Under the pieces are notes generated by a model. The model did no database searches, was not told the origin of the DNA, and saw only the letters and a list, made by a program, of their open reading frames with translations. DNA of 64,000 nucleotides, from the sequence record AP019559, one strand, 5' to 3'. Made by a program: the position numbers and the translations under genes. This document shows positions 72 through 26,514 of the stretch, in pieces. This DNA comes from Escherichia phage SP15. Numbering within the stretch: the first letter of the stretch is position 1; each line of letters opens with the position of its first letter.

Positions 72-147
72 TGGTCAGTGCGGCAGGACTCGAACCTGCG
101 ACCCGAAGCATCCAAGGCTCCCACGCTACCAACTGCGCTACGCACTG
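72..147 (-). tRNA. tRNA-Pro (anticodon UGG)
   Basis: 7-bp acceptor CAGUGCG/CGCACUG, D-stem GCGC/GCGU, anticodon stem GGAGC/GCUUC, loop CUUGGAU, T-arm GCAGG-UUCGAGU-CCUGC, encoded CCA. Confidence 0.7.
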
Positions 148-156
148 TTAATTCTT

Positions 157-354
157 TTATTGTGGGGGGATATTAATAATTCGTCCATCTACACAATAAA
201 CGGTACTAGGGATTGTACTGTATATGTAGAAATTCTTTATATTACTCTCTCCGCCACAGAAATTTTTAGCAAATTCATACTCTTTATTAATGGTTGAGTC
301 AAGTTTAAAACAACCAGTAAGTAGGAATACAGATAGCAATAAAACTTTCTTCAT
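157..354 (-). CDS. small putative lipoprotein (signal peptide with lipobox LLTGC)
   Basis: 65-aa ORF, N-terminal MKKVLLLSVFLLTGC, 3 further Cys in mature part; upstream TATAAT and AGAGAAGGAAA RBS on minus strand. Confidence 0.5.
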   Translation of the reverse strand: MKKVLLLSVFLLTGCFKLDSTINKEYEFAKNFCGGESNIKNFYIYSTIPSTVYCVDGRIINIPPQ

Positions 355-564
355 TTTGCTTTCCTTCTCTTCACTTTATAAAATATATTATACAGAGAAT
401 TAAGTAAAATAGCAAATGAATTTTTAATAAATTTACTTATTGTGTAGGCCACCTGGAGGCTATGAACCCCACGGCTGACAAAGAAGTTTGCGAGACTTCT
501 CTTAAAAGCCAGAATAGACCCGCCGATCTATCGGAACCTACATAATAAGTAAACTTTATAGTGT

Positions 565-685
565 CATTCTAGACAGGACTCGAACCTGTTATCACTTGTG
601 CGGACTTACGAGAACCATTCTTTCACTCGAATCGAACGAGCTTCTGCCCTAGCCAAGCTGGTTTCCCCATCAACCACGCTAGAAT
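565..685 (-). ncRNA. atypical tRNA-like RNA, about 121 nt, with two T-arm-like hairpins
   Basis: Perfect 7-bp terminal helix AUUCUAG/CUAGAAU, 3' T-arm ACAGG-UUCGAGU-CCUGU, internal hairpin GCUCG-UUCGAUU-CGAGU; too long for a canonical tRNA, no clean anticodon arm, no encoded CCA. Confidence 0.35.
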
Positions 686-807
686 GTTTGATTGTTTTCA
701 GTGCAAGAGTCCGAGTCTTGGACACGACCGCTTCGCAAGTACATAGGCAGCTTATCATGAGTCAGCACTTCCGAATTGCTAGCCCCGTGTTCTGCACTGA
801 AATTTTA

Positions 808-1155
808 TTAGTTTAACCGTAAAGTATTATCTACTTCACCATTAATTGTTCGGCATTCCTCTGGGATTGCTGGTGTAGCCTTGTATTCCCACCACTCAGC
901 ACCATCATATTCCCCACGTTCTAGCCAAGTTCCATCGGCAAACCATACATTACCATAAAGTAATTGTCCACCGTATCCAGAATCATATTCAAAGTCTAGG
1001 TTATTAAGAAACCCCTCAATGTCTTCTTCTGTATAACCTAAAGGTAATACCCAGACTTTTTTGTCCCCATAATACCCAAATTCTATTTTAATACACTTAA
1101 CTTTAGAATTGGTATTTTTTAAGGCGAGTAACAGCTCTTCTTTAGCATTACGCAT
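808..1155 (-). CDS. hypothetical protein
   Basis: 115-aa ORF between tRNA genes. Confidence 0.5.
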   Translation of the reverse strand: MRNAKEELLLALKNTNSKVKCIKIEFGYYGDKKVWVLPLGYTEEDIEGFLNNLDFEYDSGYGGQLLYGNVWFADGTWLERGEYDGAEWWEYKATPAIPEECRTINGEVDNTLRLN

Positions 1156-1180
1156 AGTATATTCTCATACTGAATTAAGT

Positions 1181-1257
1181 TGGCGCGACCGATGGGATTT
1201 GAACCCACATTCTCTCCCGTGACAGGGGAGTACCATTACCAAGCCAGCCCCGGTCGC
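1181..1257 (-). tRNA. tRNA-Asp (anticodon GUC)
   Basis: Acceptor GCGACCG/CGGUCGC, anticodon stem CUCCC/GGGAG, loop CUGUCAC, T-loop UUCAAAU, encoded CCA. Confidence 0.7.
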
Positions 1258-1266
1258 ATAATTCAT

Positions 1267-1452
1267 TTACTCAGCTTTGAGTTTTTCAATAGCTGCATTA
1301 AGTTCTTTAAGAAACTCTTTTCGTACATTAAGACGATTGAGACTTACTAGTATATCGTGTTTAAGTTCTTCGATGTATTTCTTTTCAACTTCAATATTGT
1401 TGATAGTGCTATCACGATGAACTTCTAGCTGCGCAATTACATTCTTGGACAT
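1267..1452 (-). CDS. hypothetical protein (coiled-coil-like)
   Basis: 61-aa ORF with GAGGAAAC RBS. Confidence 0.4.
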   Translation of the reverse strand: MSKNVIAQLEVHRDSTINNIEVEKKYIEELKHDILVSLNRLNVRKEFLKELNAAIEKLKAE

Positions 1453-1554
1453 GCTTGTTTCCTCAGTTATTAATGAAAATGGTATCTGTGGCTGAATTCG
1501 ATGTCAGCAATGATAGCTGGTTGGCTACCGGTTTACTTAACTCTACACAGAATT

Positions 1555-1637
1555 TGGCGGGCCGTGTAGGATTCGAACCTACGTTGTCTTTCGACATGGA
1601 TTAACAGTCCACCGCCAAACCGCTTGGCTAACGACCC
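1555..1637 (-). tRNA. tRNA-Asn (anticodon GUU) with unusually long 13-nt variable region
   Basis: Acceptor GGGUCGU/ACGGCCC (one G-U), D-stem GCCA/UGGC, anticodon stem GUGGA/UCCAU, loop CUGUUAA, variable GUCGAAAGACAAC, T-arm GUAGG-UUCGAAU-CCUAC, CCA. Confidence 0.6.
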
Positions 1638-1789
1638 TAAATTTATATTGCTGACTAGGATTTTCACCTAGACGGAGTTAGCACCGTAGCGTGTAGCGGC
1701 ATACCTCTCCAAACCGTGCCTCATCTTTCAATTACGGAGACAGTGTTCCTACGCGTGCCTGAATTGATTCAACAATTCTTCCAGCAAAT

Positions 1790-1865
1790 TGGACGACCGC
1801 ATGAGATTTGAACTCACATAAAAAGGATTTGCAATCCTTCGCCTAAGCCCTTCAGCCAACGGTCG
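1790..1865 (-). tRNA. tRNA-Cys (anticodon GCA)
   Basis: Acceptor CGACCGU/GCGGUCG, anticodon stem AAGGA/UCCUU, loop UUGCAAA, T-arm GUGAG-UUCAAAU-CUCAU, CCA. Confidence 0.65.
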
Positions 1866-1934
1866 GTTTATCTTGTTCTGTCATGTTGCTTCTCCAGTTC
1901 AATTTATGTAATTATTATACAGAACTTTTGGAAA

Positions 1935-2207
1935 CTAAGCAACTACATTTTTTAAGAATTTGATGCCTTTCTTTTTCTTCTTATATTTCCACGTTAATGG
2001 ATTCTGTCGATTATGAACGCTTGAGATCTTTGTCTCGTCAAAGTTCTTCAATATCATGTAATCACAGGATAATTGTTCTAGTAGAATGTGATCACCGTCA
2101 AAAGCGTATACATAAGGCTGTTGACTAACACGATAATGATAGACTTTGTTAATTCTACGTTTCAGCGACTTATCAGCGCAGTAAATAAAGAAGTTTTCAG
2201 GATGCAT
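1935..2207 (-). CDS. hypothetical protein
   Basis: ORF track 1935..2222 begins at TTG; internal ATG at 2207 follows AAGGAG with 6-nt spacing. Confidence 0.45.
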   Translation of the reverse strand: MHPENFFIYCADKSLKRRINKVYHYRVSQQPYVYAFDGDHILLEQLSCDYMILKNFDETKISSVHNRQNPLTWKYKKKKKGIKFLKNVVA

Positions 2208-2224
2208 CAGCAGCTCCTTCAATT

Positions 2225-2299
2225 TGGTGCACCCTGTTCGTATCGAACGAACCTCTCAAGCTCTTCAGGCAAGCGCTAATCCATCTCAGCTAAAGGTGC
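2225..2299 (-). tRNA. tRNA-like element, possible pseudo-tRNA (anticodon arm does not fold)
   Basis: Good 7-bp acceptor GCACCUU/AGGGUGC, T-arm GUUCG-UUCGAUA-CGAAC and CCA, D-stem GCUG/UAGC, but no 5-bp anticodon stem found. Confidence 0.35.
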
Positions 2300-2305
2300 A
2301 AATTT

Positions 2306-2382
2306 TGGCAAACCTACTAGGACTCGAACCTAGACCGTACGGTTTTGGAGACCGACATGCTGTCCAGTAACACTCTAGGAAT
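2306..2382 (-). tRNA. tRNA-Trp candidate (anticodon CCA), acceptor stem with two U-U mismatches
   Basis: Anticodon stem UCGGU/ACCGU, loop CUCCAAA, T-arm CUAGG-UUCGAGU-CCUAG, CCA; acceptor AUUCCUA/UAGGUUU imperfect. Confidence 0.5.
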
Positions 2383-2390
2383 GCAGAAAT

Positions 2391-2467
2391 TGGCGTCCTG
2401 TGCGGGGATCGAACCCGCAAATCCTACCTTGAAAGGGTAGTGACTTTACCAGTTTGTCTAACAGGAC
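2391..2467 (-). tRNA. tRNA-Glu (anticodon UUC)
   Basis: Acceptor GUCCUGU/ACAGGAC, anticodon stem CUACC/GGUAG, loop CUUUCAA, T-arm GCGGG-UUCGAUC-CCCGC, CCA. Confidence 0.7.
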
Positions 2468-2474
2468 TTAAATT

Positions 2475-2565
2475 TGGTGTTGGATGATGGAGTCGAACCA
2501 CCCGAGACCCTTCCGAGTCGGCAGATTTACAGTCTGCTTCGCTACCTCTACGATACTAATCCAAC
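2475..2565 (-). tRNA. tRNA-Tyr (anticodon GUA), type II with long variable arm
   Basis: Acceptor GUUGGAU/AUCCAAC, anticodon stem GCAGA/UCUGC, loop CUGUAAA, long variable arm, T-arm GGUGG-UUCGACU-CCAUC, CCA. Confidence 0.7.
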
Positions 2566-2695
2566 ATATTTAGAAGTATTCAAAAATTCTCATTTAAACA
2601 CTTTTAAATATGTTTTCAAATTAGGTAACTATTATACCAAGTTTTAAGGCACTGAGCAAGTCAAATTTTAAAGAACTTGCTCAGTGCTATATTAG

Positions 2696-2971
2696 TTAGT
2701 CGAACTTAGGAGTGACAGTTAAGGAGAACGGAAGTTCGAAAACTTCTTCACCCTCATTACTAACGGTAACTACACGACCTTTAAGTTCAGACATTAAAAT
2801 ATCAATATCAGCTTTTGCATCTGGAGCCATACCAGCTTCAACACATTTAGCTTTAACTTCCGGCAGAAGTTCGACATCGTAGAAATAAAGCCATTCAATC
2901 TCACCTTCCCAGCCTTCCCAGGATTTACAGATTGCACTTTCAATACCAGTTGCTACAACACGATTTTGCAT
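2696..2971 (-). CDS. hypothetical protein
   Basis: 91-aa ORF, GGAG RBS. Confidence 0.5.
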   Translation of the reverse strand: MQNRVVATGIESAICKSWEGWEGEIEWLYFYDVELLPEVKAKCVEAGMAPDAKADIDILMSELKGRVVTVSNEGEEVFELPFSLTVTPKFD

Positions 2972-3061
2972 TCGTTAACTCCTTCATCAATTTATACAAC
3001 TATTATATCAGAAATTTAAAGCAAAAGGCAAGTACATTTTTAAAAATTCTGTTTGGAGGAG

Positions 3062-3268
3062 CTAAACTCCAGATTCTTCAGCTAAGTCTAGGCTAATAAG
3101 AGTTATAGCCATAATTGCTGCACCGTGTTCTTTTTCTCCGGTGTTTTTAGCAGAGTCTATAATAGTCTTAATCTGTTCGTAATAGCCTTTTACTTCTTGT
3201 TCAATACCTGCCTCGGCTATCATGCCTTTAGTCATGATTCGTTGCATAGTAATTTCACGGTTAGCCAT
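3062..3268 (-). CDS. hypothetical protein
   Basis: 68-aa ORF, GGAGA RBS, start overlaps stop of upstream small ORF (TAATG-type coupling). Confidence 0.45.
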   Translation of the reverse strand: MANREITMQRIMTKGMIAEAGIEQEVKGYYEQIKTIIDSAKNTGEKEHGAAIMAITLISLDLAEESGV

Positions 3269-3428
3269 GATGTTTCTCCAGCTTCATTTTTAATAGTTTA
3301 CAAATGAAATCAACGTCTTCATCTGTACCTAGATCTCTATCTTCAAGAGTTGCCTTGAAGTTTTTAGTCAATTCCATGAGGATAACTTCTCTAGAACGAC
3401 GTGTTGGCGGAGGTGGATGTCTATACAT
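3261..3428 (-). CDS. small hypothetical protein (55 aa, Pro-rich N-terminus)
   Basis: Not in ORF track (below 60 aa); AAGGAA RBS 5 nt before ATG; translationally coupled to 3062..3268. Confidence 0.3.
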   Translation of the reverse strand: MYRHPPPPTRRSREVILMELTKNFKATLEDRDLGTDEDVDFICKLLKMKLEKHHG

Positions 3429-3443
3429 CTTATTTCCTTAGTT

Positions 3444-3520
3444 TGGTAGGGGTGGTGGGATTCGAACCCACAAAACCTGAATTTTAAGTCCAGTACCTAT
3501 GCCAATTCGATTACACCCCC
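3444..3520 (-). tRNA. tRNA with anticodon UAA (Leu-type anticodon but short variable loop)
   Basis: Acceptor GGGGGUG/CACCCCU, anticodon stem CUGGA/UUCAG, loop CUUAAAA, T-arm GUGGG-UUCGAAU-CCCAC, CCA; D-stem weak. Confidence 0.55.
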
Positions 3521-3527
3521 GTGTAGT

Positions 3528-3716
3528 TTAGTCAATTACTTTTGAGGCTTCAAGGTAGTCGATATAGTGTATGTTTTCTACCGTAATCATATAATCTGTC
3601 ACTTTATCCATAGCTTGGGCTTCAGAGGTAGCTCTGGCTAACCTATATCCTTTTTTATATTCATCCGGGTATTCTCTATCTTGGATAAACACAACATAAA
3701 CTATATATAGATCCAT
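3528..3716 (-). CDS. hypothetical protein
   Basis: 62-aa ORF. Confidence 0.4.
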   Translation of the reverse strand: MDLYIVYVVFIQDREYPDEYKKGYRLARATSEAQAMDKVTDYMITVENIHYIDYLEASKVID

Positions 3717-3725
3717 TTGTGACCT

Positions 3726-3803
3726 CTATTTAATTTGGTGGCTCCCCGAGGATTCGAACCTACGTACCTTCCGGTTATGAGCCGGGTGCTCATACCATAT
3801 GAG
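3726..3803 (-). tRNA. tRNA with anticodon CAU (Met/Ile type), weak T-stem
   Basis: Acceptor GGUUCUC/GGGAGCC, D-arm GCUC-AUAUGGUAU-GAGC, anticodon loop CUCAUAA, T-loop UUCGAAU but T-stem only 3 clean bp, CCA. Confidence 0.5.
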
Positions 3804-3809
3804 CTTGAG

Positions 3810-3898
3810 AACCAGAATTTGGCGGAAGAAGCGGGAATCGAACCCACAAGGCTATATTTCAAACCGACAGATTAGCAATCTGCTGCAATACCGTTATG
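3810..3898 (-). tRNA. tRNA-Ser (anticodon GCU), type II
   Basis: Acceptor GGAAGAA/UUCUUCC, anticodon stem GCAGA/UCUGU, loop UUGCUAA, long variable arm, T-loop UUCGAUU, CCA. Confidence 0.7.
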
Positions 3899-3929
3899 CT
3901 ATTCTTCCGAATTTATAAGATATATTATA

Positions 3930-4448
3930 TTAGAAATTTAGCTTCATAGCAAGAAAATTTTTCAAGTTTTCGGTAGACATCTCATCCACATCTACGGGAG
4001 AAACAAAGCCGTTTAATTTTCTAGCAAATTTTTCACCCGCAGGATCATTATCTCCGACAGCTACCAATTTAAAAGGTAGTAATTTCAGTTGCTTTAATAA
4101 CGCTTTTCCTGGAGAAGAACCCAACATTGCTAGGGCTGGATAACCAGCATTATGTAACGCAACTGCCTTAAATACAGATTCAGCAATCAATACTACTTTT
4201 TCATCTCCATTGAGAGTTTCTAGTCCCCATACACACTGGGTAGTAGAATAAGTAAAGTATTTAGCTTCAAAGGGGCACTTACCATGACCTTTTGGAGCAG
4301 AAGGATTATAAGTTTGATAGCCCCTCAACATCCCAGAGAAGTCATACAACGGGACTGTTAGCCATCCTTCCGGACTTAACCAGCAATGATATTTATCTGT
4401 ATCAAATCCTCTAGATAAGAGGTGCTGTGTTAGCTCATCAACATTCAT
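3930..4448 (-). CDS. stand-alone Toprim-domain protein (DnaG-like catalytic core)
   Basis: Motifs VVLIAESVFKAVALHNAGYPALAMLG and VAVGDNDPAGEKFARKL resemble the DnaG Toprim E...DxD core; start moved to ATG at 4448 (AGAGGA RBS), track extension reads through the promoter. Confidence 0.5.
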   Translation of the reverse strand: MNVDELTQHLLSRGFDTDKYHCWLSPEGWLTVPLYDFSGMLRGYQTYNPSAPKGHGKCPFEAKYFTYSTTQCVWGLETLNGDEKVVLIAESVFKAVALHNAGYPALAMLGSSPGKALLKQLKLLPFKLVAVGDNDPAGEKFARKLNGFVSPVDVDEMSTENLKNFLAMKLNF

Positions 4449-4623
4449 ATTTGGTTCCTCTTTCAAATTTATAGATATATTATACAGAGAATTTAGCATT
4501 CAAGCAATCAAATTTTTTAACTTTTTAGAGGAAAATCATAGGGCACTTAAGGATAGCAGATAAGTGGTGAGGACCAAAATTTGTGACCCCACTAAAAATT
4601 CAGGGGCAATTTTTAAAGACCCC

Positions 4624-4653
4624 TTGACATTTTCGCTGGGGTAGTGTAAAGTA
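4624..4653 (+). promoter_or_regulatory. sigma70-type promoter for the low-complexity cassette
   Basis: TTGACA (4624-4629), 17-nt spacer, TAAAGT; about 60 nt upstream of ATG 4714. Confidence 0.5.
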
Positions 4654-4713
4654 TATGTTATGGATGAGTGATCAAAGAGACACACATTTTCTATATACTA
4701 GGAGGTGTCAAAA

Positions 4714-5697
4714 ATGACAGAAGAAGTAGCTAAGAGTCCTGAGACCGTCGCTAGCGTTGCAGCAGAACTGCACCGTCACGAGGAATCAGATAAGAAAAAG
4801 TGGGAGAAGGTCAGAGCCTACGAAGAAAAACATCGTGAACACGATGATGAAGAAGATGACGATGAACATTGTCATAAATATGGAAAACATAAAATGCAAG
4901 AACCAGTAAACGTATTTACTAGTGGCTTCCCTGGCCTACTGGGTGGTTACCCAGCAAACGCAGGTGCTTTCGGTGGTGAAGGTATGGGACTATTCGGAGC
5001 TATCCTAATCGGTGCTCTATTAACAGGCGGATTCGGTGGTTTCGGTGGATTCGGTGGACGTGGTGTAGTTGGTGATGGTACCGCAGTTGATGCAGTACTT
5101 CAGAACCAAGATACCGCTAGTATTCTAGCAGCTATTAACACTACTCGTACAGAAGCTAACCAGGGTACTGGAGCTGTTTTAAGCGCAGTTAACAATGGGT
5201 TTAGCCAGACATCCCAAAACCAGAGCCGTGATACTCAGTCTGTACTAACTACGATCTATGGTACAGGTGCTAATCTGTCTAATCAGATCTGTCAGGAAAC
5301 TCGCAACGTTATTCAGGGTCAGTTCGATCTTTCTCGCCAGATTGATCAATCTTTCGCAGCTAATCAGATAGCTCGTGCACAAGATAAGTTTGATTCTGCA
5401 CAGATCGCTTTCCAGCAGACTTTACAAACTAATAACCAGTTTGCCGCTGTTCAGGCTCAGATGTGTGCTAACCAGAACTCTCTGGAACGTCAGATCGCTG
5501 AATGTTGCTGTGAACTTCAGACTGCTATCGCTGGTGTAACTACTGCTCGTATTCAGGATGAGTTAGATGCATGTCGCCTACGTGAAGCAATCGCTGCGGG
5601 TAACGGTGCTAACGGTCAGGTAATTAATCAAATCGCTGTAAGTCTTGGTGCTATCACTCAGACTCTGGCTGGTCTGCAGGCTAAACTGCCGGCTTAA
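4714..5697 (+). CDS. low-complexity membrane protein: His/acidic N-terminus, Gly-zipper TM segment, Q/N/S/T-rich C-terminal domain with CCC motif
   Basis: AGGAGG RBS 9 nt before ATG 4714; TM GLFGAILIGALLTGGFGGFGGFGG; codon usage rich in CGT/GGT/GCT/CTG. Confidence 0.6.
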   Translation: MTEEVAKSPETVASVAAELHRHEESDKKKWEKVRAYEEKHREHDDEEDDDEHCHKYGKHKMQEPVNVFTSGFPGLLGGYPANAGAFGGEGMGLFGAILIGALLTGGFGGFGGFGGRGVVGDGTAVDAVLQNQDTASILAAINTTRTEANQGTGAVLSAVNNGFSQTSQNQSRDTQSVLTTIYGTGANLSNQICQETRNVIQGQFDLSRQIDQSFAANQIARAQDKFDSAQIAFQQTLQTNNQFAAVQAQMCANQNSLERQIAECCCELQTAIAGVTTARIQDELDACRLREAIAAGNGANGQVINQIAVSLGAITQTLAGLQAKLPA

Positions 5698-5718
5698 TAT
5701 TAAGGGGAGGAGCCCATT

Positions 5719-6135
5719 ATGAGTAAATATGGTTTTGTAAATAACGGACTTAATCAAAGTATGGGCTCCCAGCAGCCCATTCCGGGTCTGGATAACCCCT
5801 ACTTACAACAATTGCAACAGCGTTTAGCAGAAGCGCAACAGATGCAACAACAACTCCAGCAAAACCCTGGAAGTGTGAGTCCTATGCAAATGATGCAGCA
5901 AATGAGCGGGCAGTCGCAAATGCCTCAACAAATGCAGCAACAGATGCCGCAGCAGCAAGTTCAGCAGCAAACCCAACAACCGCAGGTTTCTGCGGAAGGA
6001 CAGGCAGTACTAGCCCTTTTCGAAGACTTCACAAAGACAGAGGATGGGAAGCAGCTTGTATCACTTATGGGTAAGTTTAATAGCTTCTGCCAAAGCCAAG
6101 TTGCAAAAGCTCAAAATGGTGGTAATAACTCCTAA
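5719..6135 (+). CDS. Q-rich protein
   Basis: 138-aa ORF, RBS AGGGGAGGAG, about 30 percent Gln in central region. Confidence 0.55.
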   Translation: MSKYGFVNNGLNQSMGSQQPIPGLDNPYLQQLQQRLAEAQQMQQQLQQNPGSVSPMQMMQQMSGQSQMPQQMQQQMPQQQVQQQTQQPQVSAEGQAVLALFEDFTKTEDGKQLVSLMGKFNSFCQSQVAKAQNGGNNS

Positions 6136-6144
6136 GGAGAAATT

Positions 6145-6339
6145 ATGTGTTGCAGAAAACCTGTTTCGTGCTGCCCAATGCCTGTAGCACGTTGTTGCTC
6201 TCCAGCAATGTTTACACAAATACCGGCGTTCAATCCCTTTGCCTTTAAGCCTACTCTTATCCTGCCCCCTAGAGTAGATTTTCAGTCAAGATTGGCCTCC
6301 CGTATGGGTGGTTGCTGTACACCGAGAGTGTGGTTCTGA
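6145..6339 (+). CDS. Cys-rich small protein (paired CC motifs)
   Basis: 64-aa ORF, RBS TAAGGAGA, four CC pairs; followed by hairpin terminator. Confidence 0.5.
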   Translation: MCCRKPVSCCPMPVARCCSPAMFTQIPAFNPFAFKPTLILPPRVDFQSRLASRMGGCCTPRVWF

Positions 6340-6354
6340 AGAACCAAACAATAA

Positions 6355-6386
6355 AGCCCCTAGTCGAAAGACTTAGGGGCTTTTCT
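6355..6386 (+). terminator. rho-independent terminator after the low-complexity cassette
   Basis: Hairpin AGCCCCTAG...CTAGGGGCT followed by TTTTCTG. Confidence 0.65.
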
Positions 6387-6399
6387 GTATTTAAGATAA

Positions 6400-6436
6400 A
6401 AGAAAAGCCCTGCGCTCTCCAGGGAACGCAGGGCTT
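6400..6436 (-). terminator. rho-independent terminator after SPFH gene
   Basis: Hairpin GCCCTGCG...CGCAGGGC with U-run on minus strand. Confidence 0.6.
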
Positions 6437-6459
6437 ACTTCAGATGTTACATGCGGATA

Positions 6460-7407
6460 TTATTTATTACGCATATCCATGATCATTTGACCATCGTAGC
6501 CAGTACCTACCACAGTCTGTGGTACACCACCTTGATATTTCTGAGCACGAATCATTTCGACTTCCAGTTGTTTCCAACGAATCATCTCAGGAGTAATGGT
6601 ACGTTGCAGTGCGGCGTTAGCTTCAGCTTCTTTCTTAGCTGCGTACAGTTTAGCATCTGCGTCACGTTCATTAGCGATAGCTTGGTTGTTGCGAGCTTCA
6701 CGATCTGCTTCTGCTTGTTTAACTTTTTGCTGTGCTTCCTGTTCAACACGAGCTAATTCAGCTTTAGCAGCATTAACCTGTTCTTCACGAACTTTGGTAT
6801 TCTGTACCTGTTCCATGATTACCGGTGGCAAAGTAATATCCTGAAGGAATACCTGCTTAACTGTGTAACCATATGGGCGTGCATACTCTTCAACTTCCTG
6901 TTGAATTGCAGTTTGCAATTGAGCCTGAATTTTAGCATCAAACAAATCTTGTGCTTTAGGTACAGACTTACCAAACTCACGAATAGTAGACAGTAATTTT
7001 TCAGTTACATATTTGTCTAACGCTTGATCCTGAGTACCTGCGTTAATACGGTTAATTGGTGCCTTAGAACCATCAAACTGCAACATAACAGTCAGGTCAA
7101 CAGTGGATTTAAACTTATCCTGGCTAGGAACCTGAAGTTTATCTAATTTTACAGCAATATCTTTTGTACTAAAAGTGTCGAAAGATGCAAATGGGTTTAC
7201 AAGATGGAAACCTGGTAATACTGGGTTAGGATCTACTTTACCCAGAAATGTTTGGGTTTTAACCGTACCATCAGAAACAATAGTATATGAATTAAAGGCT
7301 AGAATCAAGCCTGCTAAACCAACTACAGCACCAATACCCCAACGTTTAATAGTACGAATTACTTTCTGCTCAGAAGTCAGTTCTTTCATATTTTTAGTAT
7401 TAAACAT
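6460..7407 (-). CDS. SPFH/band-7 (prohibitin/HflC-like) membrane protein
   Basis: N-terminal TM helix IGAVVGLAGLILAF, then band-7-like domain and Ala/Glu/Gln-rich coiled-coil typical of the SPFH family. Confidence 0.6.
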   Translation of the reverse strand: MFNTKNMKELTSEQKVIRTIKRWGIGAVVGLAGLILAFNSYTIVSDGTVKTQTFLGKVDPNPVLPGFHLVNPFASFDTFSTKDIAVKLDKLQVPSQDKFKSTVDLTVMLQFDGSKAPINRINAGTQDQALDKYVTEKLLSTIREFGKSVPKAQDLFDAKIQAQLQTAIQQEVEEYARPYGYTVKQVFLQDITLPPVIMEQVQNTKVREEQVNAAKAELARVEQEAQQKVKQAEADREARNNQAIANERDADAKLYAAKKEAEANAALQRTITPEMIRWKQLEVEMIRAQKYQGGVPQTVVGTGYDGQMIMDMRNK

Positions 7408-7440
7408 ATATTTCCTTTGTTTTAGTTACAGTTAATAAAA

Positions 7441-7515
7441 TTGGCCGAGGTGACAGGATTCGAACCTGCATAAAGGAATTTAGAAGACTCCTGCCTCTCC
7501 CTTAGACTACACCCC
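7441..7515 (-). tRNA. tRNA-Arg (anticodon UCU)
   Basis: Acceptor CGGGGUG/CACCUCG, anticodon stem GGAGU/AUUCC, loop CUUCUAA, T-arm GCAGG-UUCGAAU-CCUGU, CCA. Confidence 0.7.
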
Positions 7516-8029
7516 GTTTAAATATTTTTAAGAACTCTCGTAAAAACTCTTAAAAATACAGACGATACCGGGAGAGTCATAAGTCTCACTCATTAAGTAT
7601 TTCAAGACAAAATACAGTAACGTCTATTATTTTCCAGTTTAAGTCAGGGTGACTTAGTGGTTAGGTCCTGCGGTATATTGAGGACTCGGTTAGGCTTGGG
7701 GTCATGACTTCCCGCCTTTTGCTGCTACTCAACAGGAGTTATCGCGAATTACCTGTGCTATTGTGCACCATTAGTGACATCTCTCATGTCAGCATTTCCC
7801 ACTTTGTGGATAGCTTGAAAAACTACTCCGATATGGAGAAAAAACTTCACTATCCTAGAATACCTTCTAAAGTTCTTCTTTAGCCTGGACATAGTTAAAT
7901 CGTAATAAAACTATTCAGCAGACTGGTTGGTTAGCCTGGAACCAACTACCGCGTGGTTTAGGCAGTGCGCAACTAACCTCGGAAGCTTTTACGTTAAAAG
8001 CATCAGTTATCCAGTTCTTACCGACCGTA

Positions 8030-19600: not shown

Positions 19601-20362
19601 TTACACCTTCCCCATGTCTTTAAAGATGTCATAGAATGCTTTAGACTCAACAGAACGAACGTTATCCATCAATTCGATCATTGAGAATGGGGCATTTTCG
19701 TATTTCTCATAGACTTCCATAAGGAGTGCTAGACCTGAGTCACCTTTAATGTCTTTCTGAGCTATATCTCCGCAGATAATTAAACGGCAGTCTTGTCCTA
19801 CACGAGTTAGGAGACAAATCATTGCCTCAACGGAAATATTCTGAGCTTCATCGACAATTACATAGGAGTTGTTGAAAGTTCTGCCACGAGCATGTTCGAT
19901 AGCCAAAAATTTAATTTTCTGACGTTCGACATATCCCTTATAGGCATGTTCGCCGATGGCCCATTTCATACCATCAGCTATTGGCTCCAACCAAGGCTCT
20001 AGCTTTTCTGCTAGATCACCAGGAAGCATACCAAGAGACTTACCTAGAGGTTCATTAGGACGTACGAGGATCACTTGCTCAATATCTGAGTGAATGTCTA
20101 CGAGTTCCTGAGCTGCAAGAACGGACGGAATAAAGGTTTTACCAGTACCTGGCTCACCGATACCCACAGTCACTGTGTTGTTCTTGATCATATTGATATA
20201 TGATTTTTGCTCGCGGTTTTTACCTACTAGGGATTTAGCAACTGGGTTAGCGTAATCATTAGAAAAATCAGCCTGAATTACGTTATTCTCATACTTGTTG
20301 CCACGCTTTCTTGAACCATTGCGGTTCTCTCTTTTTTGACGTGCTTTTCCCATAAATAACAC
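19601..20362 (-). CDS. phoH: PhoH-like ATPase
   Basis: Walker A GEPGTGKTF and PhoH family blocks. Confidence 0.85.
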   Translation of the reverse strand: MLFMGKARQKRENRNGSRKRGNKYENNVIQADFSNDYANPVAKSLVGKNREQKSYINMIKNNTVTVGIGEPGTGKTFIPSVLAAQELVDIHSDIEQVILVRPNEPLGKSLGMLPGDLAEKLEPWLEPIADGMKWAIGEHAYKGYVERQKIKFLAIEHARGRTFNNSYVIVDEAQNISVEAMICLLTRVGQDCRLIICGDIAQKDIKGDSGLALLMEVYEKYENAPFSMIELMDNVRSVESKAFYDIFKDMGKV

Positions 20363-20647: not shown

Positions 20648-20676
20648 TTGACATCCGCCCTCGAATGAGTTATAAT
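20648..20676 (+). promoter_or_regulatory. consensus sigma70 promoter for nrdD
   Basis: TTGACA-17 nt-TATAAT, then GAGAAGGAGA RBS. Confidence 0.65.
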
Positions 20677-22587: not shown

Positions 22588-22620
22588 AGCCGGGTTGCTA
22601 GTCGACCTGGCTTTTATTTT
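22588..22620 (+). terminator. rho-independent terminator after nrdD
   Basis: 7-bp stem AGCCGGG/CCTGGCT then TTTATTTT. Confidence 0.6.
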
Positions 22621-22679: not shown

Positions 22680-23060
22680 ATGGAATTAAAGCCCTATATA
22701 GTTGAGTCTACGTGTGGTAGTTTCCATCTGGGCGTGGATGATATTGCTGAAGCTGTCTTTGCTGCCACAGGTGATTACTCGCATATAGAGGGTGTTGCAT
22801 ACCCTACCATTATTGGCGATTGGGTGGGAACAAATCTAGATGTATCGCCTTATAACCCATATTGCTTGTTTGATGAAGACAGAGATGAAGTAAAATGTAA
22901 TCTTGAATTTGTGTATAATAGAGTGTTAAAAGTATACCAACGTAGCCCCAATGGATACGAAGATATTACTTGGAGTATTAAACAGTATCTTAAAGATGTA
23001 TACTCTAGTTTTTCTGACGAAGACCTAGAAACAGTTGCAGTGGAGTTTAATAATGACTAA
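22680..23060 (+). CDS. hypothetical protein
   Basis: 126-aa ORF with GAGAGGAG RBS. Confidence 0.55.
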   Translation: MELKPYIVESTCGSFHLGVDDIAEAVFAATGDYSHIEGVAYPTIIGDWVGTNLDVSPYNPYCLFDEDRDEVKCNLEFVYNRVLKVYQRSPNGYEDITWSIKQYLKDVYSSFSDEDLETVAVEFNND

Positions 23061-23259
23061 GAATGTAAAACATCTTAAATATCGCTTAATTTATAACGGA
23101 CGTATGGAAACAGAAGATCTGGCCCAGTTAGCTATTAATTCTAATGAGGTTACAGTGCGTGCGCTGGCAATTGAAAAGTTGCGTGCCTCTTATGAAAATC
23201 GTGTTATGGAACTAGAGGAGAAACTTTATGGCATTCTCGAAGCCGATGCTACCAGATAA
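23053..23259 (+). CDS. hypothetical protein
   Basis: ATG 23053 after GGAG; overlaps previous gene. Confidence 0.4.
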   Translation: MTKNVKHLKYRLIYNGRMETEDLAQLAINSNEVTVRALAIEKLRASYENRVMELEEKLYGILEADATR

Positions 23260-23449
23260 GGGTTTAAACGCCGCTTTGGAAAACGCATTAATGCAGCACT
23301 GGGAAACTGGCTATAAGGATGGTGTTGAATCCTGCGCTACTATGCTAGAAGTTATTGCTAATACCTTAATGGAGAAAGGCAATAAAGAATTAGCTGAGCT
23401 ATTAGACAGTATTGGGCAAAACTTCAGAGAACAGGTGAAAAATGCGTAG
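23228..23449 (+). CDS. hypothetical protein
   Basis: 73-aa ORF, GAGGAG RBS. Confidence 0.45.
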   Translation: MAFSKPMLPDKGLNAALENALMQHWETGYKDGVESCATMLEVIANTLMEKGNKELAELLDSIGQNFREQVKNA

Positions 23450-24260
23450 ATTAATTATTATTAGCGGTGCAGGTTTGAGTGTTGAAAGTGGTGTACGAGC
23501 TTTTCGTACTGATACTGCTAGTGGTAAAGCATTGTGGGATGATTATGATCTAGAAGAAGTATGTAATATTCATGCCTTTCGTGGTAATTTTTATCATAAA
23601 ACCCATATGTTTTACAACAAGCGTCGTGAAGAGCTAAAAACTGTTGAACCTAATCTTGCTCATTTGCGTATTGGTGAGTGGTATAAACAATATCCAGGTC
23701 AAGTAGTAAACTTGACTACCAACGTTGATGACCTTATTGAGCGTGCTGGCGTTCCACATAGTGACATTCTGCACATTCATGGGTACTTAAAAGAGGTTGT
23801 TGTGGCTGATAGTCACAATAGTAGTAATAAACGAGTTATTGATGTAGGATACAATTCTATTGATCCAGATGACTATAAATGGGTTAAACCTAATGTAATC
23901 TTCTTTGGGGAGCATGCTCCAGCATATGCAGAAATGTACAATATTTTTGATGGTATTACCAATCAAGATATGATCATTGTGGTTGGTTGCTCTAACCAAG
24001 TAATTAACTTCTACTGGGAATTATTTCCTATTCTTAACCGTACTGCTGCCAAGCTAATGGTAGTTAACTACTATGATAGTGCCCTAGCGGCAGAACCAGG
24101 CTATCAAGGTATGACTCGTAGTGAGATGTACCAGCTGGAAGAACGCGGTATCCCTTACTGGAGTAAAGGGGCTGTAGATGCCTTCAGTGATCCTGATTTT
24201 ATTGCTCGTGTAGAAGCTCATCTAGAGGGTAGACCTTATGTGTCAGGAAGTAAGAAATAA
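23442..24260 (+). CDS. Sir2-family NAD-binding protein lacking the zinc-ribbon module
   Basis: Motifs GAGLSVESGVRAFR, TTNVDDL, HIHGYL, VVGCSNQV; no CxxC...CxxC pair. Confidence 0.65.
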   Translation: MRRLIIISGAGLSVESGVRAFRTDTASGKALWDDYDLEEVCNIHAFRGNFYHKTHMFYNKRREELKTVEPNLAHLRIGEWYKQYPGQVVNLTTNVDDLIERAGVPHSDILHIHGYLKEVVVADSHNSSNKRVIDVGYNSIDPDDYKWVKPNVIFFGEHAPAYAEMYNIFDGITNQDMIIVVGCSNQVINFYWELFPILNRTAAKLMVVNYYDSALAAEPGYQGMTRSEMYQLEERGIPYWSKGAVDAFSDPDFIARVEAHLEGRPYVSGSKK

Positions 24261-24423
24261 TGAATGGGATATTTTCATAACTGAGTCTGGTACTTGGTGC
24301 TATAGATTTGCCTATAGGTTTCCTAGTGTAAGAAAACGGCTGGGGTACACATATAAAATTATCTACACTACAGATAATATATGGTTGTCCTCTGGAGATG
24401 AGGGGAAACAGATATGTCCATAG
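24238..24423 (+). CDS. small hypothetical protein (WCYR motif), paralog 1
   Basis: 61 aa; shares DIF..x..G.WCYR motif with the next ORF. Confidence 0.4.
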   Translation: MCQEVRNNEWDIFITESGTWCYRFAYRFPSVRKRLGYTYKIIYTTDNIWLSSGDEGKQICP

Positions 24424-24596
24424 TTAAATCTGTGTATACACATCCCGATGATATATTTGTATGGGCGGATGGTAGTTGGTGCTATCGATGTGAGCTATGG
24501 GAAATGGACTATAAATCTGATGACTATGGTGTCATATATGTTGATACGGTTGAGTATGATACGTTCTTAGAAAGGGACAAAAATGGAAATAAGTAA
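24414..24596 (+). CDS. small hypothetical protein (WCYR motif), paralog 2
   Basis: 60 aa, GAGGGGAAAC RBS. Confidence 0.45.
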   Translation: MSIVKSVYTHPDDIFVWADGSWCYRCELWEMDYKSDDYGVIYVDTVEYDTFLERDKNGNK

Positions 24597-25089
24597 TACT
24601 CCAATTATTTTTCTAGACATTGATGGGGTGCTTAATTCGAGCATCTCCCACCATCATGCACCTGATGATGAAAAGATTTTCTTTGGAAGTGACTGGGTTT
24701 TTAAGCCACTTCTCAAGGCTTTTCAGGACTTTATTCGTCCTTCTCCAATAATGATTGTTGGGGTATCTTCATGGTTCTCTGTCAGGAATGAGATGGAGAA
24801 CGTTCAGATTATGACCGGATTAGATCTTATCGATCGTTTTCTTGGTACAACGGATTTTACTGGTGGTGGGCTATCTAGGGGTAATTCTGTTCTTCGCTTC
24901 GTTGAAAAGCATAAGCTCAAACATTGGTGTGTGCTGGATGACGCTGGTGCTATGATGTATCAGTATCCAACTGTTATAGTCAATGGTAGAATTGGAATAA
25001 ATCTTCAAGATTTAAGAGCTGTTAGCTATATGTTAGAATTTAGTCCAGATCTTGAAATGTGTAAAGCCCTACAACAATTTAAGGTGTAA
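24583..25089 (+). CDS. HAD-superfamily phosphatase (possible deoxynucleotide 5'-monophosphatase)
   Basis: N-terminal IIFLDIDGVLN (HAD motif I) and downstream Asp-rich motif. Confidence 0.55.
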   Translation: MEISNTPIIFLDIDGVLNSSISHHHAPDDEKIFFGSDWVFKPLLKAFQDFIRPSPIMIVGVSSWFSVRNEMENVQIMTGLDLIDRFLGTTDFTGGGLSRGNSVLRFVEKHKLKHWCVLDDAGAMMYQYPTVIVNGRIGINLQDLRAVSYMLEFSPDLEMCKALQQFKV

Positions 25090-25091
25090 AT

Positions 25092-25520
25092 ATGTTCAAT
25101 AATGTGTTCTCTAAAGAAGCTAACCCAATATTAGTTAATTTTTGGCGTACTCTTCCAGCCAACCTGTACAATGAGGCTATTAATGCTCTGAAAATATGGT
25201 GTGAGAATAATGAAATCTCCTTTGCTTTTAAAGGCGAGGTTGAAGAGGCTCCCTGTATTGGTTTAATTGTGCAGGTGGAGGATGGTCTTGAAGAGATTGT
25301 CGGCTGGAAAGAGTTGGATGAAATGGGCTTGGTTTTTGCGTTAAACTATAAGCTGTTTATGCCCAATAAACACCGTATTGTTGTTAACTATAAAACCAAT
25401 GAATCTCCTGGTTTTCAAGTTAATGAACGGTATGGTTGGTCTTACTCACCGGAAGAGGTAAATGATGGTATCCAGAAACTTCGTCGTTTTGGTTATCAAA
25501 TTCCGGGTTTAACTGCCTAA
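25092..25520 (+). CDS. hypothetical protein, paralog A
   Basis: 142 aa; shares PCIG...W.EL...GL..ALN..LF.P...IPGL pattern with 25530..25922. Confidence 0.5.
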   Translation: MFNNVFSKEANPILVNFWRTLPANLYNEAINALKIWCENNEISFAFKGEVEEAPCIGLIVQVEDGLEEIVGWKELDEMGLVFALNYKLFMPNKHRIVVNYKTNESPGFQVNERYGWSYSPEEVNDGIQKLRRFGYQIPGLTA

Positions 25521-25529
25521 GGAGGCACA

Positions 25530-25922
25530 ATGGAACAAGTATATTGGCGTCAGATCGACCCTAGTTTGGTGAAGCGTGCAGAGAAGCTGCTACAACGTTG
25601 GTTGGGGGTAAGACAAGCCTCCTTCACTTTTCCGGAGCAGCAAATAGACGATCCCTGTATTGGTGTTTTCCTATCAGGCTACGCTAGGGAATGGGAATTG
25701 GATTGGAATGAATTGTCTGCTATGGGTTTAATTGTTGCACTAAATTTCTCTTTGTTCCATCCACGTGGTTTGGCCATATGTCGTGTGCCTGAGGACGGTT
25801 GTTCGCCCCATCTTTTACAGGTGGAAGATGATATTTGGGAGTACACTCCAGATATTCTCAAAGAAGCCAAAGAACAATTAAACCGTGTTGGAATTTATAT
25901 TCCAGGCCTGAATGATGAATGA
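25530..25922 (+). CDS. hypothetical protein, paralog B
   Basis: 130 aa, AGGAGG RBS. Confidence 0.5.
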   Translation: MEQVYWRQIDPSLVKRAEKLLQRWLGVRQASFTFPEQQIDDPCIGVFLSGYAREWELDWNELSAMGLIVALNFSLFHPRGLAICRVPEDGCSPHLLQVEDDIWEYTPDILKEAKEQLNRVGIYIPGLNDE

Positions 25923-26061
25923 TTTTTATTGGTTGACCTCTATAATCCGGGCTATTAGTGCTCGGATTATTGCCTAATCTTTCCAGCTAATTGACAGCAT
26001 GAATAAATTGTCATTGACAAATTGAATAGATTATGTAATAATATGTGTATTGGAGGTAAAG

Positions 26062-26514
26062 ATGTCGCTCACACAACAAGAACTTTTAGATAATTTCCGA
26101 TATGAAGATGGAAAATTATTTAGAACCACAGGAAGAAATGCAGGCAAGGAATGTTGTGTTTCAACGGGAAATGGGTATTATCGTATTTCTCTAGGTAGTA
26201 AAACTATGCTCCGACACAGAGCCATCTTCTTAATGCATCATGGTTATCTCCCTGATTTAGTAGATCATGAGAATACTATAAAAGGTGATGATCGTATTGA
26301 AAATCTTAGAGAGCAGACAGTATCCGGTAATCTAAGAAATATCAAATATAAGAAAGGAATGCATGTTTACCCTTCTGGTAGTAAGAACTGGCAAGTAGTA
26401 TTTACTATTAACCGTAAACGTATAGTTAAAGGAACATATGACAACTATGAGGTTGCATGTTCTATGGCCAAGATGTTTAGAGGTCAATTATACGGTAGGG
26501 AATCAATCCAGTAA
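26062..26514 (+). CDS. HNH homing endonuclease (HNH_3 plus AP2-like domain)
   Basis: HRAIFLMHHGYLPDLVDHENTIKGDDRIENLRE; GGAGG RBS before ATG 26062. Confidence 0.65.
   Translation: MSLTQQELLDNFRYEDGKLFRTTGRNAGKECCVSTGNGYYRISLGSKTMLRHRAIFLMHHGYLPDLVDHENTIKGDDRIENLREQTVSGNLRNIKYKKGMHVYPSGSKNWQVVFTINRKRIVKGTYDNYEVACSMAKMFRGQLYGRESIQ

Follow-up and report, generated by a model that had tools for sequence, protein, structure and literature searches.

The 64,000-nucleotide stretch of Escherichia phage SP15 analyzed here (record AP019559; referred to below as the window, with positions counted from its first letter) carries on its plus strand a gene for a Sir2-family protein of the class III, CobB-like type that has no zinc ligands (23442..24260, ATG start, 272 amino acids). 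Our preferred reading, which we hold only tentatively, is that this sirtuin is an active, phage-specific offshoot of class III that takes part in the healing of RNA ends dependent on nicotinamide adenine dinucleotide (NAD), coupled to a HAD phosphatase and possibly in a Tpt1-like manner. Literature and databases already cover the sirtuin gene, the absence of its zinc site and the hypothesis of a repair role, so that the window contributes one more instance and no discovery.

Iyer, Burroughs, Anantharaman and Aravind (2022; PMC9503650) defined this phage sirtuin clade and predicted an RNA-repair role for it. In section 3.7.3 of that study three neighbourhood types are distinguished, and Escherichia phage SP15, a Tequintavirus, is the exemplar of type 3 (sirtuin plus HAD_SAK). 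The window shows the same arrangement, from which nothing essential differs, with two extra small open reading frames (ORFs) between the two genes. Using homologues of the window sirtuin we also reproduced neighbourhood types 1 and 2. What is added here is that the RNA-repair context is confined to the zinc-less lineages with a TTN motif, and that some T5-like lineages are without the HAD gene. An earlier note on this DNA had missed both the long-standing annotation and this more specific published hypothesis, which was drawn from the adjacent HAD phosphatase (PMC9503650).

Family, fold and zinc segment of the sirtuin

The protein is a member of the Sir2/sirtuin superfamily, far beyond chance. 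It matches Pfam SIR2 (PF02146) over residues 9-187 with an E value of 1.1e-25 and 91 bits (gathering cut-off 24), and PHROG 2162, labelled 'Sir2 (NAD-dependent deacetylase)', from end to end with an E value of 2e-121. The segment GAGLSVESGVRAFR occupies residues 9-22, HG residues 113-114 and GCSNQV residues 182-187; the superfamily motifs GAGxS, FR, NxD, HG, FGE, GxS and N are all present, and the TQNxD motif reads TTNVD. The earlier note had described a phage-encoded Sir2-family protein that has the Sir2 NAD-binding motifs; this is borne out by these results, including the motifs that it quoted. The sirtuin consists of a single domain. A megablast search found the gene in 232 phage records; in 224 of these the match spans 80% or more of its length, and nucleotide identity is mostly 90-96%. 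These records are mostly from Salmonella and Escherichia phages, those inspected being T5-like (Demerecviridae), and they annotate the gene as 'Sir2-like protein', 'NAD-dependent protein deacetylase' or 'hypothetical protein'.

An alignment of 57 homologues (55% mean column identity) was used to score conservation. Residues G9, A10, G11, S13, F21, R22, Y58, R61, R62, T93, N94, D96, H113, G114, F154, F155, E157, G182, S184 and N209 are invariant, a set that covers the residues for NAD binding and nicotinamide expulsion, the catalytic histidine and the class III YxxR motif. Since these residues do not vary, the alignment indicates that the sirtuin is clearly under selection as an enzyme and looks active; a reading as a pseudo-enzyme was rejected on the same invariance of the catalytic residues. 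Y58 and R61, which form the motif for acidic acyl groups, are also invariant in a set of 120 close homologues. C41 (in EEVCNIH, at about 23562..23564), which lies outside the zinc segment, is invariant in the close clade and kept in ~80% of distant relatives; CobB has an alanine at this position.

The sirtuin contains only two cysteines, C41 and C183. None is found in residues 115-150, the segment that holds CxxC...CxxC in zinc-binding relatives, nor is there a cysteine anywhere between HG and FGE that could contribute to the Cys4 zinc site of the small domain. The insertion itself is kept: it measures 36 residues, against a mean of ~38 in more distant representatives, most of which bind zinc, and AlphaFold2 models it as three beta strands (114-122, 131-134 and 147-152) with a predicted local distance difference test (pLDDT) score of 90-97. 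In the model, then, the beta scaffold of the zinc ribbon is retained, and the metal ligands alone are lost. The earlier note had stated that the zinc-binding cysteine pairs are lacking, which is correct, and that the protein is without a zinc-ribbon module, which holds for the ligands but not for the module, whose 36 residues and three confident strands are still there.

To place this loss among relatives we searched 1.8 billion cluster representatives, of which 3018 matched at E <= 1e-3 and 45 at E <= 1e-30, and aligned 137 of the best. Every one of these more distant representatives that was scored keeps H113 and N94, and almost all keep D96. At least three cysteines are present in the zinc segment of 86 of the 137, usually as two CxxC pairs, and 71 of these 86 have the canonical TQN(V/I)D. 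The other 51 have at most two cysteines there, and 32 of the 51 read TTN(V/I)D. By this distribution, zinc loss is a derived state of a sub-clade within a wider sirtuin clade, and it accompanies the change of glutamine to threonine in the ribose-contacting motif. The wider clade is well represented on viral contigs, with 289 confirmed stretches in IMG/VR. A further change concerns the substrate strand, which is V-Y-P in CobB and V-I-N in the T5-like proteins. In CobB this strand lines the acetyl-lysine tunnel, and its Pro221 has been called strictly conserved (PMC5107563). The replacement looks like a sign of changed substrate binding.

The AlphaFold2 model, built from the 57 homologues, has an overall pLDDT of 90.9 and a predicted template-modelling score (pTM) of 0.89. 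Foldseek searches of this model against the PDB returned housekeeping sirtuins for all of the top 50 matches, with CobB first (E 1e-17, TM 0.72/0.83), followed by Sir2Af1, SIRT5 and Sir2Tm. The solved structures nearest in sequence are E. coli CobB (1S5P, E 1.6e-17), Archaeoglobus Sir2Af1/Af2 and SIRT5. Among NCBIfam models, the best matches are likewise CobB-type deacylases, at scores below their cut-offs (103 versus 243 bits and 93 versus 320 bits), so that the CobB equivalog threshold, a measure of orthology to the cellular deacylase, is not reached. Sequence and model together point to a derivative of class III (CobB/SIRT5-type) sirtuins, and not of immune NADases. With E. coli CobB, Sir2Af1 and SIRT5 the sirtuin shares the fold, ~24-26% identity and the GAGxS, FR, NxD, HG, FGE, GxS and YxxR motifs. 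It differs from CobB and class III in lacking the zinc cysteines, in having TTNVD for TQNxD and V-I-N for V-Y-P, in scoring below the CobB equivalog thresholds, in being encoded by a phage and in being linked to genes for RNA-end processing.

None of the Sir2 models among the PADLOC defence models matches the sirtuin, even at E <= 1, and a defence-type Sir2 was rejected on this result. The defence Sir2 NADases (ThsA, DSR1/2, SIR2-HerA and SIR2-pAgo) have the superfamily, NAD cleavage and the absence of bound zinc in common with the sirtuin. In ThsA-type proteins, however, the whole zinc insertion is absent and the acyl-lysine pocket is blocked (PMC7272460). Moreover, defence Sir2 proteins are fused to or paired with sensors or partners (SLOG, HerA, pAgo, TIR), whereas the sirtuin keeps the insertion and has no such neighbour. 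The earlier note had pointed to NAD-consuming defence effectors as kin and had proposed structure prediction and comparison as a check. That kinship is not supported, given the lack of a PADLOC match and the retained insertion, and the comparison places the model nearest to the deacylases CobB, Sir2Af1 and SIRT5, not to defence Sir2. SirTM enzymes (class M) are encoded in an operon with a macrodomain protein and lipoyl-carrier/LplA2 genes, and have altered catalytic residues; the sirtuin, by contrast, keeps the catalytic histidine and has neither a macrodomain nor a GcvH-like neighbour, no Pfam match to Macro being found among the nine ORFs neighbouring it. In having no macrodomain gene beside it, the sirtuin agrees with the phage RNA-repair clade (PMC9503650). 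Fusions in longer relatives were uninformative on function, as they consist of tandem Sir2, WG or RHS repeats, or contain no second Pfam domain.

Neighbourhoods of the sirtuin gene across phages

The conserved partner gene of the sirtuin in T5-like phages codes for a HAD_SAK_2 phosphatase (24583..25089, plus strand; PF18143, E 5e-20) and lies 320 bp downstream of the sirtuin gene. PF18143 is described as 'HAD domain in Swiss Army Knife RNA repair proteins', and D12, D14, S62 and D119-D120, which make up the catalytic motifs of this phosphatase, do not vary among 26 distinct sequences. Both genes are part of a block of nine plus-strand ORFs (22680..25922), in which starts and stops overlap or abut. 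The sirtuin and HAD genes are co-transcribed and probably translationally coupled.

We compared 86 loci encoding relatives of the sirtuin, grouped into 26 lineages at 70% Sir2 identity. Each of the 24 loci of the lineage to which the window belongs has HAD_SAK_2 downstream of Sir2, as have two further T5-like lineages; in another lineage (L066) it lies 2.4 kb from Sir2. The local arrangement of one IMG/VR genome (L011) is exactly that of the window, and in phage phiP4 the sirtuin gene ends within the HAD gene.

Other partners are found outside the T5-like phages. In Mydo-like and related phages of ~145 kb, SIR2 is accompanied by Metallophos, Rnl1 (T4-type RNA ligase 1), cREC, an AAA_33 kinase and an ATP-dependent DNA ligase. 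From lineage to lineage these genes differ in order and orientation, and genes for NAPRTase/NAMPT and PRPP synthetase are found upstream. The set of Metallophos, Rnl1, cREC, AAA_33 kinase and SIR2 is present in Raoultella phage Ro1, in Erwinia phage pEa_SNUABM_55 and in ~135-kb metagenomic phages. In jumbo phages of ~355 kb the order is NAMPT, further genes, an Acb1-like 2H phosphoesterase, a small ORF, SIR2, Nudix-cREC, a small ORF and PIN-PhoH. The Nudix protein directly downstream of SIR2 is Nudt16-like and fused to cREC, and in one of these phages (L068) the PIN_4 plus PhoH fusion lies 1.3 kb downstream of the sirtuin gene.

Zinc-less lineages thus stand beside genes for RNA-end processing in three unrelated phage groups (T5-like, Mydo-like and jumbo). 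A neighbour of the RNA-repair type is present in 11 of the 19 zinc-less lineages and in none of the 7 zinc-binding ones (Fisher p = 0.010). Viral relatives of the zinc-binding, TQN type (L070, L071 and L076) are found, within regions of 7-10 kb, beside a PP-loop (TilS-like) ATPase, a family 2 glycosyltransferase and a sulfotransferase, a setting quite unlike that of the zinc-less clade.

Three side observations were made at these loci. The label 'Sir2 (NAD-dependent deacetylase)' of PHROG 18062 is wrong: this family corresponds to the C-terminal half of the HAD_SAK_2 phosphatase (residues 77-168), and the HAD protein matches its whole 92-position profile with an E value of 1.7e-57. The mislabel probably explains records with two adjacent 'NAD-dependent deacetylase' genes, such as that of phage Stokescottia. 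The Acb1-like 2H phosphoesterase gene is directly upstream of Sir2 in jumbo phage L082 (7510..7953 of that locus) and one small ORF away in L068; its product might be a cyclic phosphodiesterase for RNA or a nuclease directed against CBASS. Finally, an ECO340P2-like phage (L003) carries an Acb2/Tad1-hairpin gene (3940..4215) 4 kb upstream of Sir2.

Proposed RNA-end healing and alternative functions

If the sirtuin acts in RNA repair, it would spend NAD+ on a step in the healing of the ends of RNA, probably tRNA, that had been cleaved by host anticodon nucleases or other metal-independent RNases. Following the proposal published in 2022, ADP-ribose would be moved onto an RNA 2'-phosphate and released as ADP-ribose-1'',2''-cyclic phosphate together with nicotinamide, as by Tpt1/KptA. 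An oxygen nucleophile would attack C1'' of NAD, whereupon nicotinamide leaves, and the ribose 2''-OH, activated by the histidine, would then attack the adduct to give the 1'',2''-cyclic species; remaining terminal phosphates would be dealt with by the HAD phosphatase. According to the established enzymology of sirtuins and Tpt1, their reaction cycles run parallel step by step, and it is this parallel that makes the Tpt1-like proposal chemically attractive. Tpt1/KptA resembles the sirtuin in the proposed reaction, NAD-dependent removal of an RNA 2'-phosphate, and in its occurrence in RNA-repair gene contexts. It differs in fold, being ART-like (PTS_2-RNA) and not a Rossmann sirtuin, so that the analogy would be one of function only.

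A wider claim, which we consider doubtful, is that the zinc-less 'TTNVD' phage sirtuins are the first sirtuins to have RNA as their physiological substrate. They would remove the 2'-phosphate or another adduct from RNA ends by NAD-dependent ADP-ribosyl transfer, as a Rossmann-fold analogue of Tpt1, and together with HAD, cREC and 2H enzymes would undo tRNA damage done by host defence nucleases. Loss of the zinc site, the glutamine-to-threonine change and loss of the V-x-P proline would then be marks of a switch from peptide to RNA as substrate.

A number of observations weigh against a role in RNA-end healing. All of the functional evidence for the sirtuin is guilt by association, many functions are mixed in phage early regions, and we found no assay of, or experiment on, the T5 or any other phage sirtuin in the searchable literature. 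Two T5-like lineages (L060 and L062) keep Sir2 without HAD_SAK_2. A pathway of Rnl1, kinase and Metallophos/HAD phosphatase needs no removal of a 2'-phosphate. The sirtuin is acidic, with an isoelectric point (pI) of 5.7, as are the representatives of all 26 lineages (pI 4.7-6.5), which argues mildly, though not decisively, against direct RNA binding; Tpt1, by comparison, is basic. In addition, the sirtuin alignment contains no basic patch specific to the clade, and the YxxR motif and all else that a desuccinylase or deacetylase needs are kept.

A survey centred on Rnl1, covering 79 phage loci (L087-L165) in 35 lineages, weakens the association further. Sir2 lies within 8 kb of Rnl1 in only 11 of the 79 loci and 3 of the 35 lineages; it is an accessory of RNA-repair modules and no part of their core, which consists of Rnl1, Metallophos and the AAA_33 kinase. 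Genes for NAD salvage (NAMPT/NAPRTase, PRPP synthetase and NMNAT-Nudix) often adjoin Rnl1 modules even where Sir2 is missing, and part of the Sir2 linkage may reflect such an 'NAD island'. We scanned ten recurrent neighbour clusters of the Rnl1 loci against Pfam, which gave Metallophos, PRPP synthetase, dCMP deaminase, PD-(D/E)XK and NMNAT-Nudix. KptA/Tpt1 was not among the ten scanned from loci without Sir2, and consequently the Tpt1 analogy gains no support from displacement; the candidate explanation that Sir2 has replaced KptA/Tpt1 by non-orthologous displacement was set aside as unsupported by these ten clusters. Two weak negatives are that a pattern scan for Rnl1 gave no locus on T5-like contigs that carry the sirtuin, and that no RNA ligase was found among those window ORFs that were scanned against Pfam. 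On the other side, cREC is rare among the 35 lineages and occurs together with Sir2 in two of the three lineages that have it (p = 0.015). Apart from the question of Sir2, the pattern of Rnl1 with NAD salvage hints at a wider island of RNA repair and NAD metabolism.

Nearly as likely as RNA-end healing is a canonical function: NAD-dependent lysine deacylation by a CobB-like deacetylase/desuccinylase that acts on host or phage proteins early in infection and, for instance, reactivates enzymes acetylated by acetyl-phosphate. Packing or salt bridges would then stand in for the zinc site, and the neighbourhood would be due to chance or to regulation. We rate this function so high because every residue that a CobB/SIRT5-type enzyme needs is retained: His113, the phenylalanine of FGE and the class III Y58xxR61 motif for acyl carboxylates are invariant, and the small-domain scaffold that forms the peptide cleft is kept. 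It agrees too with the nearest solved relatives in sequence and fold (CobB, Sir2Af1 and SIRT5), which are true deacylases, with CobB models as the best NCBIfam matches, and with the standard GenBank and PHROG annotation. The same has been argued for the zinc-less Sir2/CobB proteins of the large Vibrio myoviruses KVP40, phiSt2 and phiGrn1, described in 2016 in a study that also lists T5 as a carrier of a homologue (PMC5107563). Those proteins, ~24% identical to bacterial CobB, resemble the window sirtuin in being phage-encoded and CobB-like with a catalytic histidine and no zinc site, and were interpreted as deacetylases tied to NAD salvage and acetyl-CoA synthetase (PMC5107563). Nevertheless, the sirtuin scores far under every CobB equivalog cut-off (93 versus 320 bits), the glutamine of TQNxD has become threonine and the proline of the V-x-P substrate strand asparagine, and the host already has CobB. 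A deacylase also leaves unexplained that zinc-less, and not zinc-binding, lineages recur beside RNA-end-processing genes in three phage groups.

We consider it improbable that the sirtuin is an NADase or ADP-ribosyltransferase of the phage-host conflict. Such an enzyme would act on host proteins or disturb NAD-dependent defence, for instance by using up signals derived from NAD or by forestalling defence Sir2/TIR systems. The NAD-cleaving residues are intact, and some homologues have near them the Acb1-like 2H gene (jumbo phages), the Acb2/Tad1-hairpin gene (L003) or NAD-salvage genes (NAMPT and PRPP synthetase, in Mydo-like and jumbo phages). Yet the protein bears no likeness to defence-type Sir2 models and stands on the housekeeping branch, with no sensor or partner domain and no adjacent macrodomain, and no known anti-defence annotation was found among the window ORFs scanned. 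NAD consumption, besides, would worsen NAD depletion and not counter it, and T5-like phages presumably carry their own NAD-dependent ligase. The suggestion of the earlier note that the protein interferes with NAD-dependent defence accordingly finds no support as an anti-defence role.

Equally little weight is given to another substrate linked to nucleic acid: NAD-capped RNA, whose cap would be used as ADP-ribosyl donor or removed; N-acetyl-aminoacyl-tRNA made by GNAT toxins; or DNA ends, in conjunction with adjacent ligase genes. The Nudt16-like Nudix-cREC protein encoded directly downstream in jumbo phages belongs to a decapping family; in Mydo-like lineages Sir2 is closely followed by a gene for an ATP-dependent DNA ligase, which also co-occurs with Sir2 among the Rnl1 lineages (p = 0.03); and 11 phage tRNA genes are located at the start of the window. 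Such substrates, however, are pure conjecture and without precedent for sirtuins, and the same associations are explained equally well by RNA repair.

Gene layout of the window and biological meaning

The layout of the window is T5-like, with 11 tRNA genes followed by genes for nucleotide metabolism, PhoH, nrdD and replication. The tRNA genes (72..7516, minus strand) are those for Pro, Asp, Asn, Cys, Phe, Trp, Glu, Tyr, Leu, Ser and Arg. They form the T5-type tRNA region; a phage may meet the anticodon nucleases of its host with tRNAs of its own or, alternatively, by RNA repair. A PhoH-like ATPase gene (19601..20362, minus strand; PHROG 170, E 5e-82) is a syntenic neighbour of the sirtuin gene. 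The nearest strong promoter-like site upstream of the sirtuin block, a sigma-70-type consensus matching at 12 of 12 positions (20648..20676, plus strand), precedes nrdD, and a terminator-like hairpin follows nrdD just upstream of the nine-ORF block (22588..22612, plus strand); both are pattern matches only. The location of the sirtuin gene, with PhoH, nrdD and D5-like helicase/origin-binding neighbours and this promoter, is consistent with the T5 early region, to which the earlier note had also assigned it.

The block opens with three small ORFs (22680..23449, plus strand; PHROGs 11748, 5236 and 5827) that are joined to one another, and to the sirtuin gene, by start-stop overlaps. Two paralogous small ORFs of PHROG 5116, encoding 61 and 60 amino acids (24238..24423 and 24414..24596, plus strand), separate the sirtuin and HAD genes. 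This pair is a variable insertion, present in 0, 1 or 2 copies in T5-like relatives; the paralogues share the motif DIFxxxxG(S/T)WCYR, and a related small ORF follows Sir2 in L062 and L038. A tandem pair of DUF7415 genes (25092..25520 and 25530..25922, plus strand; PF24187, E 3e-32 and 2e-31) closes the coupled block and is kept downstream of Sir2/HAD in T5-like lineages, including those without HAD. In phage phiP4 the DUF7415 proteins are annotated as 'tail tube protein', a label that seems mistaken for genes of the early region. The next strong promoter-like site (26014-26042), near-consensus with an extended -10, belongs to an ORF for an HNH_3 endonuclease (26050..26514), which is probably a free-standing homing endonuclease inserted ahead of the D5-like helicase gene.

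Should the sirtuin be a plain deacylase, it would be a routine auxiliary gene of these phages. If, on the other hand, it acts in NAD-dependent RNA-end healing, the reach of sirtuin chemistry would widen from the deacylation of proteins to the repair of nucleic acids, and T5-like phages would gain, beside their own tRNA genes, an enzymatic answer to tRNA-cleaving defences.

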